Assembly (NCBI GenBank): GCA_964016885.1
Contig: OZ024741.1
Span: 278,752,001 to 278,816,000, forward strand
Length of the DNA: 64,000 nucleotides
Direction of reading: 5' to 3'
Source of the DNA: Eledone cirrhosa
Taxonomy: Eukaryota
The notes beneath the pieces were generated by a model. It ran no database searches. It was given only the letters and a program-made list of their open reading frames with translations, and was not told the origin of the DNA. Positions within the stretch are counted from its first letter, which is position 1; each line of letters opens with the position of its first letter. The translations under genes were made by a program, and so were the position numbers. Of this stretch, positions 53,705 to 54,135 are shown piece after piece.

Positions 53705-54135
53705 ATATGAAAGACGTAAAATAAGAACATTTTAAAAATTAAAAATTAACTTACTAAAATTTTCACTCCAACTAATTAGTTTCTGTAAGGGAATGAATAT
53801 AGTTACGTAATATAACCATAGAGAAGTCCTTACGTCATCAGGGAGTCTATTCTCAGCTAAGTTCCCAGGCAATGCGCGGACACTAGGAACCCATATAAAA
53901 ATAATAATTCAGTGGTTATATTACGTAACTATATTTATTCCCTTACAGAAACTAATTAGTTGGAGTGAAAATTTTAGTAAGTTAATTTTTAATTTTTAAA
54001 ATTTTCTTATTTTACGTCTTTCATATAATTGTTCTGCATCCCCCTGCATAGAACCACAAAGGTACTAAGACATAACATATATATTTGCTAGCATGGGTAT
54101 ACATCTGTATACATATGTTGGTAGATGTACTAATT
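53705..54135. mobile_element. Diverged monomeric relative of the 559-bp HHR array, with inverted arm
   Basis: 53705-53910 homologous to 58853-59072; 53913-54135 homologous to the opposite strand. Confidence 0.85.
53765..53846 (-). ncRNA. Type I hammerhead ribozyme, long stem II
   Basis: ACUCC-CUGAUGA-C-GUAAGG..UAUGGUUA/UAACUAUA..CCUUAC-A-GAAAC-UAAUUA-GUU-GGAGU. Confidence 0.85.

Follow-up and report, generated by a model that had tools for sequence, protein, structure and literature searches.

In the present study, a stretch of 64,000 nucleotides from Eledone cirrhosa (the window) was analysed around a hammerhead motif on the minus strand at 53765-53846. The features needed for the argument are given below, one per line.

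53703..53914, minus strand: left arm of the insertion, a 5'-truncated retrozyme copy with the whole hammerhead, ending at the near fixed end beside (TA)n
53912..54134, plus strand: right inverted arm with half a ribozyme, starting inside the inner helix; far fixed end beside (TC)n(TA)n
53765..53846, minus strand: type I hammerhead of the GUAAGG subfamily, 82 nt, from sequence
53846-53842 with 53769-53765, minus strand: stem I, ACUCC / GGAGU
53841-53835 and 53783-53780, minus strand: catalytic core, CUGAUGA and GAAA, from sequence
between 53770 and 53769, minus strand: predicted cut at the GUU site, from sequence
53785..53833, minus strand: two-helix stem II, from sequence, pairwise comparison, tree and family alignment
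53833-53828 with 53790-53785, minus strand: outer helix of stem II, GUAAGG / CCUUAC
within stem II, minus strand: 7x7 internal loop, ACUUCUC (5' side) / UUCAUUC (3' side)
53820-53813 with 53805-53798, minus strand: inner helix of stem II, UAUGGUUA / UAACUAUA
53812-53806, minus strand: hairpin loop UAUUACG, 7 nt
53834 and 53784, minus strand: C and A mismatch in the slot of pair 10.1-11.1, then an invariant G-C
53771..53780, minus strand: short stem III, 10-nt palindrome ACUAAUUAGU, possible as a dimer helix between two ribozymes
53850..53854, minus strand: GAGAA, predicted 5' strand of a pseudoknot, upstream of stem I
53821..53825, minus strand: UUCUC, predicted 3' strand of the pseudoknot, on the 5' side of the stem II internal loop
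58855..61578, minus strand: inverted half of the array, five near-identical 559-560 bp units of the GCAAUG subfamily, with (TA)n at the end
59001, 59560, 60120, 60679 and 61238, minus strand: cores of the inverted half
61579..64000, plus strand: direct half of the array, cores at 61667, 62228, 62787, 63346 and 63905
35718..35805 (match at 35795), minus strand: family G hammerhead with two-helix stem II, G-C at 10.1-11.1 and predicted pseudoknot AAAGA/UCUUU

Read on the minus strand from 53846 to 53765, the motif runs ACUCC, CUGAUGA, C, GUAAGG, ACUUCUC, UAUGGUUA, UAUUACG, UAACUAUA, UUCAUUC, CCUUAC, A, GAAAC UAAUU AGU, U and GGAGU. This fits the type I hammerhead, in which CUGANGA and GAAA are set around three helices and stem I is open. 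The NUH triplet is GUU, and the closing pair A15.1-U16.1 is A-U in all 25 rows of the family alignment described below. The conserved 10.1-11.1 pair, which is usually G-C, is missing; C/A is found instead, with a G-C one step outward. Since U/U and C/A exceptions have already been published, the C/A marks a variant of the hammerhead and does not exclude it from the type I class. Rfam gave no hammerhead match at the gathering score across the 64-kb window, and at E up to 10 none of the 11 matches in 53600-54200 belonged to a hammerhead family, these being microsatellite-driven miRNA and other chance matches.

The insertion around the hammerhead is 430 bp long and flanked by microsatellites. As it contains no full unit, it is a truncated dead end with one whole and one half ribozyme, and the selected changes described below arose in source elements. 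The GUAAGG type is not alone, because 40 other scored matches (among 1,909 candidates in the 3.0 Gb genome) are 95-99% identical; the hammerhead is a member of a separate subfamily within a non-coding repeat of 521-571 bp. The pattern of core and stem III had 8,448 exact matches genome-wide and the reversed-pattern control had none. The 19 distinct cut-to-cut units measured 521-571 bp, with GC of 0.34-0.38 and identity of 68-100%, and the circular MFE of units gave z of -4.5, -4.8 and -4.6 (25 dinucleotide shuffles each). No ORF of 120 aa or more was present in the array, whose direct half continues past the window with two more cores and then (TA)n. No RNA data set was listed as containing the array unit, and the four runs compared with it were contigs, which do not bear on transcription or on cut sites. 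Insertions lie in (TA)n and consist of tandem plus inverted 5'-truncated copies; of 84 terminal ends, 41 were 51-77 nt and 36 were 165-199 nt downstream of the cut site, so that 77 fall at two fixed sites, at (TA)n or (TC)n. With tandem units carrying a type I hammerhead, no ORF, GC below 50% and strong predicted self-pairing, the repeat is a non-LTR retrozyme, the name given to tandem non-coding units with type I hammerheads (PMC7229834, accessible part; preprint 10.64898/2026.07.22.740005). Partial tandems with an inverted 5'-truncated copy, one extended end and a microsatellite target were also found, and in the accessible part of PMC8557442 such tandems, inverted copies and extended ends, with a (TA)n target, are hallmarks of Penelope-like elements; the repeat is likely mobilised by one of these. 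Ahead of the ribozyme, an E-box-like GUCACGUG and a hairpin (about 62061-62070 and 62180-62208) are conserved across the family A subfamilies, which are 70% identical, and are possible promoter or structural elements.

In the pairwise comparison with the array copy at 61662-61743, 15 of 82 sites differ. Eleven of these lie in stems, none of the 22 drawn pairs is lost, and four pairs owe this to double changes. In the outer helix these are C-G to U-A and U-A to G-C, which confirms the claim of the earlier note that GCAAUG/CAUUGC had become GUAAGG/CCUUAC by two double changes. In the inner helix they are G-C to U-A and C-G to U-A, and here too the previous reading of two double changes plus wobble swaps was right. 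Single changes that keep a pair are A-U to G-U, G-U to A-U and U-G to C-G. When the same number of substitutions was placed at random under six simple nulls, all pairs were kept in 4 to 1,316 of 500,000 trials. Catalytic core and stem III are unchanged between the two copies, as had been noted, and the list of changes is accurate apart from the hairpin loop, which has 7 nt with the first base changed (G versus U). The loop AUUACG, described as fixed, is so in the two copies compared but not family-wide, where cUUCGg and other loops occur. The U-G to C-G difference in stem I also exists, but the U-G is the array's own variant, since other copies of the array subfamily carry C: all 12 array units have U, and C was found in 66,709 of 75,694 depth units (run X1).

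For the covariation analysis, 25 copies were hand-chosen to span the subfamilies, and RNAalifold on this alignment found both stem II helices unaided. The earlier note had named a family-wide alignment as the check that could refute it, and three of five measures in these 25 copies were significantly above the shuffled values: the named structure had 94.1% of 641 cells paired (84.1 shuffled, 0/500), the covariation score was 0.300 (0.126 shuffled, 0/500) and 69 cells had a double change (25.5 shuffled, 0/500). The number of pairs with a double change (9 versus 7.5 shuffled, 55/500) and of further pair types (23 versus 21.9, 170/500) was not significant. Slid controls were 38-48% paired. At position 2 of stem II all four Watson-Crick pairs occur, and in the 25 chosen copies the outer-helix cells were paired in 150 of 150 cases. 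The inner helix was 84.3% paired, with its first pair mismatched in 6 of 25 rows and its length variable, and its loops range from AUUACG to cUUCGg across subfamilies.

Furthermore, a tree was made from the flanks only, with 103 copies having intact flanks (8 with rearranged flanks were dropped), and one copy per insertion was used, giving 66 insertions. On internal branches, five independent double changes and one single change in outer stem II kept pairing and one broke it, the latter being a 7-bp subfamily misregistered by anchoring; on terminal branches two were kept and six broken. Over all helices, 23 changes were kept and 8 broken on internal branches versus 16 and 21 on terminal branches (Fisher p 0.014). 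Seven changes on internal branches break the inner helix, some of them owing to three misregistered rows; this helix behaves as a cap closing the internal loop: its pairing matters, and its sequence, length and loop do not. Such a distribution over the branches is what selection on source elements with later neutral decay would leave, and it speaks against hairpin conversion. Pairs could also change together with no selection on RNA if one arm of a DNA hairpin were corrected from the other by template switching or conversion; self-correction of quasi-palindromes is known, and this element inserts as inverted repeats. However, of the changes private to single insertions 21 of 37 break a pair, whereas of the shared ones 23 of 31 keep it, and G-U pairs on the hammerhead strand and cUUCGg loops in several subfamilies are strand- and RNA-specific signs, so that such an artefact is largely refuted and extremely improbable. 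Overall, the retrozyme hammerhead has very probably been under selection as RNA. Alignment and flank-tree count agree with the previous claim that the two-helix stem II was selected as an RNA structure, but this selection acted on the subfamily source elements and not, as had been written of the "diverged copy", on 53765-53846 itself. To call it direct evidence of a functional RNA was an overstatement, since covariation is no direct evidence of cleavage.

Another claim concerned a non-canonical C/A closing position, and C/A does replace 10.1-11.1, but it is not new and it varies in a sister family. It was found in 65 of 66 family A copies, with search patterns that demanded C/A; family B has U/U, G/U, U/G, A/G and C/A, and family G has a plain G-C in a 7-bp helix. 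C/A is known from PLE-X1_cBra and U/U from many Hydra-clade elements (PMC8557442, File S2, accessible part). The C and A could also be read as two insertions, with the next G-C as 10.1-11.1; this reading was ranked second to the mismatch because family G has G-C in the slot and the same 7-position helix. A long helix II, an extra nucleotide after A9, a palindromic helix III and families rich in compensatory changes were already reported in the accessible part of PMC4209133, a 2014 description of hammerhead families in Penelope elements. Since compensatory changes are familiar from retroelement hammerheads, the main point of the earlier note is ordinary when taken alone, and the point of interest is the reason for the long stem II.

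A candidate reason lies 4-8 nt outside the coordinates of the earlier note, where it had been missed. The loop strand UUCUC (53825-53821) is complementary to GAGAA (53854-53850), directly 5' of stem I. In the five families A, B, D, E and G, the complementary pairs are GAGAA(U)/(A)UUCUC in A, UGAGAAA/UUUCUCA in B, AAGAAUU/AAUUCUU in D, GAGUU/AACUC and GAGCA/UGCUC in E, and AAAGA/UCUUU in G. Family B had 177 matches (496-bp unit), D had 6 under a strict pattern, E had 999 and G had 852 genomic matches, each with a control of 0. At least four Watson-Crick pairs were found in 151 of 174 distinct copies of the five families and at least five in 128 of 174, duplicates within one insertion being kept in the count, while the 3'-side control gave one copy with five pairs. 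In 9 of 9 hand-picked representatives there were 5-9 pairs, with the register to the core within 2 nt, and the background for at least five pairs was 4.1%. One subfamily with GGAAAAAG upstream (448 matches; GGAAA/UUUUC) had, by eye and among the 100 matches listed, the loop UUUUC or a near variant in place of UUCUC; on the flank tree, GGAAA/UUUUC arises once, on an internal branch, with G-C replaced by A-U. Pseudoknotted hammerheads are recognised by Watson-Crick complementarity between the peripheries of stems I and II and by compensatory change in it; both were found here.

The complementarity could be a by-product of common ancestry and purine/pyrimidine bias around selected helices, with the tertiary contact non-canonical or absent and activity coming from dimerisation alone. 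Families A and B share short collinear motifs and the five families are probably related and do not count as five independent trials; A, B, D and G also cross-pair in part (5-7 bp in several off-diagonal cells), and only one double change occurs in the pseudoknot within family A. When the register was not limited, the per-family shuffle p values of 0.001-0.27 were weak; the other loop strand of family E did equally well in this unconstrained control. Nevertheless, family E has a different sequence (GAGUU/AACUC), and its subfamily with GAGCA/UGCUC changes two pairs together: with the loop UGCUC, an upstream GAGC was predicted beforehand from GCUC and GAGCA was found, and of four insertions two keep five pairs, one keeps four and one has decayed. 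In addition, the family A pseudoknot has no broken changes on internal branches and seven on terminal branches of the flank tree. A similar prediction for family G was partly borne out, since the extension past AAAGA/UCUUU is interrupted by an A-G mismatch in most UCUUUGCA copies. We consider a mere by-product to be distinctly unlikely.

The same pairing might instead be one state of a folding switch, which would limit cleavage of the monomer or circle in an otherwise active hammerhead. The upstream strand has competing partners: in family A it can lengthen stem I by pairs rich in G-U, with an apparent compensatory change in one case, and in family B it can fold into a local hairpin. Moreover, the 7-9 bp duplexes of some copies may not fit the active fold. 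Against this, loop II is the sole partner common to all five families, the register is fixed within 2 nt, as expected for stems I and II lying side by side, and stem I-stem II pseudoknots activate hammerheads where they were tested (PMC3088659, accessible part). A switch therefore appears unlikely, and we are fairly confident, from the complementarity of the sequences, that the pseudoknot forms. We rejected the 3' loop strand as main partner of the upstream strand, since it does not follow the GGAAA change and the two would have to run parallel; a triple-helix role for this U-rich strand is our speculation.

The repeat resembles the animal non-LTR retrozymes (Cervera and de la Pena 2020, PMC7229834, accessible part; Li et al. 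2026, 10.64898/2026.07.22.740005) in its tandem non-coding units with one type I hammerhead each, GC below 50%, thousands of copies, strongly self-paired unit, short palindromic stem III and co-occurrence with Penelope-like elements. Its unit of 521-571 bp is longer than the 150-450 bp given in the accessible part of PMC7229834 and inside the 51-972 bp of the preprint. Unlike them, it has a two-helix stem II of about 50 nt, and a predicted Watson-Crick pseudoknot in place of the archetypal loop 1-loop 2 nucleotides of known retrozymes. A mussel hammerhead is said to be without the usual tertiary nucleotides. No cephalopod retrozyme is reported in the preprint or in the accessible part of PMC7229834.

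With the hammerheads of Penelope-like elements (PMC8557442, File S2, accessible part) the repeat shares a long helix II, an extra or mismatched nucleotide beside the core, a palindromic stem III, compensatory subfamilies, tandem and inverted 5'-truncated insertions, a (TA)n target and a hammerhead near the 3' end. It differs in having no ORF and in the internal loop and capping helix of stem II, and its two fixed ends lie about 110 bp apart, an extension that measures 30-40 bp in those elements (PMC8557442, accessible part). The pseudoknotted hammerheads (Perreault et al., PMC3088659, accessible part; 2021, PMC7936874) likewise have Watson-Crick pairing between the peripheries of stems I and II. 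Among HDV-like examples, the 5' strand of this pairing comes from an internal loop capped by an extra hairpin, and helix I of 5 bp and helix II of 6 bp are near the lengths found here; ours is the mirror image, with the capped internal loop in helix II and the 5' strand of an open helix I (type I) as partner, in a high-copy genomic retrozyme. The pseudoknot statistics of Perreault et al. by stem length exclude the repetitive type I class, according to the Figure S4 legend in the accessible part of PMC3088659. Neither these repeats nor a type I retrozyme hammerhead with such a pseudoknot was found described in the full-text literature searched, in which subscription papers are thinly covered. 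To our mind there is an even chance that this is a previously undescribed type I architecture, in which a capped internal loop of stem II is pseudoknotted to the strand 5' of stem I, shared by at least five retrozyme families and more than 10,000 copies missed by Rfam. Such a ribozyme would depend on a dimer for cleavage and also be braced by Watson-Crick pairs, to which the U-rich strand across the loop might add base triples; a long stem II of this design may also account for the hammerheads called "half core" in other Penelope-like elements.

From the established parts, namely the motif, the copy number, the compensatory changes in source lineages, the complementarity in fixed register and the insertions in (TA)n, we infer the rest of the cycle. 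Tandem units would be transcribed, and neighbouring ribozymes would pair through the palindromic stem III and cut at GUU to give unit-length RNAs. Stem III is palindromic in families A, B, D and E and nearly so in G, which suggests by analogy that neighbouring ribozymes can cut as dimers; dimer cleavage is known for newt-type and axolotl motifs (accessible parts of PMC7229834, PMC4209133 and the review PMC6765202). The unit-length RNAs may then be ligated into circles, in which the lone weak stem III would cut poorly. An autonomous Penelope-like element that targets (TA)n would supply reverse transcriptase and endonuclease. Copying would start downstream of the cut at either of the two fixed sites (51-77 or 165-199 nt) and run round the circle through the ligation junction, so that tandem and inverted copies are inserted. 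A cut linear monomer would end 50-200 nt from the start, and insertions that pass through the cut site therefore need a circle or an uncut precursor. The twelve units of the array with one minority stem I variant fit repeated copying of one molecule, though later local duplication may account for them instead. The internal loop of stem II would pair with the strand upstream of stem I and the pseudoknot would hold the predicted active fold, selection being for the repeat's own replication.

It is also conceivable that the structure is kept for binding of reverse transcriptase, stability of the circle or packaging, with a core that is a relic of low activity. In vitro, hammerheads of Penelope elements cleave poorly (PMC4209133, accessible part), eight of nine tested Xenopus retrozymes showed no cleavage (preprint 10.64898/2026.07.22.740005), and C/A replaces the conserved 10.1-11.1 pair. 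However, the core (demanded by the search patterns, so that its retention is in part presupposed), the GUH site and the palindromic stem III are kept although the flanks of the families barely align, and coral, mussel and axolotl retrozymes cleave (PMC7229834, accessible part); we regard a relic core as very unlikely. The whole model, a retrozyme hammerhead whose long stem II is kept by compensatory changes and whose pseudoknot braces the predicted self-cleaving fold, is in our opinion likely.

Should the pseudoknot exist, base pairing would take the place of the textbook loop contacts in a large class of animal hammerheads. This class would escape both the Rfam models and short-stem descriptors, and counts of ribozymes in invertebrates would be too low. 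The subfamilies are a natural mutagenesis series, with four pair types at one stem position, five pseudoknot sequences, and C/A, U/U, G/U and G-C at 10.1-11.1; with it, one can test directly what this slot allows and what decides between dimer and monomer cleavage. The fixed ends downstream of the cut and the 12-unit array with one variant bear on whether Penelope-type reverse transcriptases copy circular RNA.

In the search for an autonomous partner, blastn of the unit against 38 Neptune-like and 20 other Penelope-like loci found no similarity except at loci holding the retrozyme itself. A family with a 796-aa RT plus GIY-YIG and a 713-aa family were each rejected as the partner, since neither has blastn similarity with the unit; the former is preceded by an upstream ORF and the latter had no Pfam match. 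Both are very abundant Penelope-like families (L066-L098 and L111-L130) with many intact ORFs, 94-98% identical and thus probably recently active; from their motifs, we take them to be Neptune-like and Hydra-like. At L012:1300-2500 (minus strand), a Penelope-like endonuclease fragment is fused directly to a family A unit on the same strand with short microhomology, a single suggestive case of a possible template switch. In a Penelope-like element with C-terminal endonuclease (L227, minus strand), a hammerhead with a simple long stem II lies about 900 nt after the end of the ORF and about 100 nt from the (TA)n end, and a tail motif resembles CAUUGAACCA, which is common to families A and B.

A loose hammerhead pattern gave 131 matches versus 196 in the control and, not being above control, served for finding candidates only. 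Among other candidates, the GAUUUA group (L161-L167) was discarded as lacking stems I and III, its members being decayed SINE-like repeat tails, and L159 and L180 were discarded as unsupported singletons. Further hammerhead-core motifs of other repeats lie in the window at 41224 (+), a compact type I fold with palindromic stem III; at 39910 (+) and 38885 (-), an inverted pair; at 57182 (-), with a long stem II and found again at L224; and at 48286 (-) and 31786 (-). Directly after the (TA)n of the insertion, 54370-55500 (+) is a PIF1-like helicase fragment (Pfam PF05970, PF21530), probably a piece of a Helitron. Non-LTR retrotransposon ORFs of 870-1030 aa and fragments occupy 1640-5512, 18321-23685 and 32161-34529, and 16457-17722 is a 32-bp minisatellite of about 40 copies. 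Elsewhere in the genome (G000:C1:92986012-93015081), more than 30 tandem family E units of about 660 bp have mosaic stem II variants with some stems broken, consistent with local satellite-like amplification.
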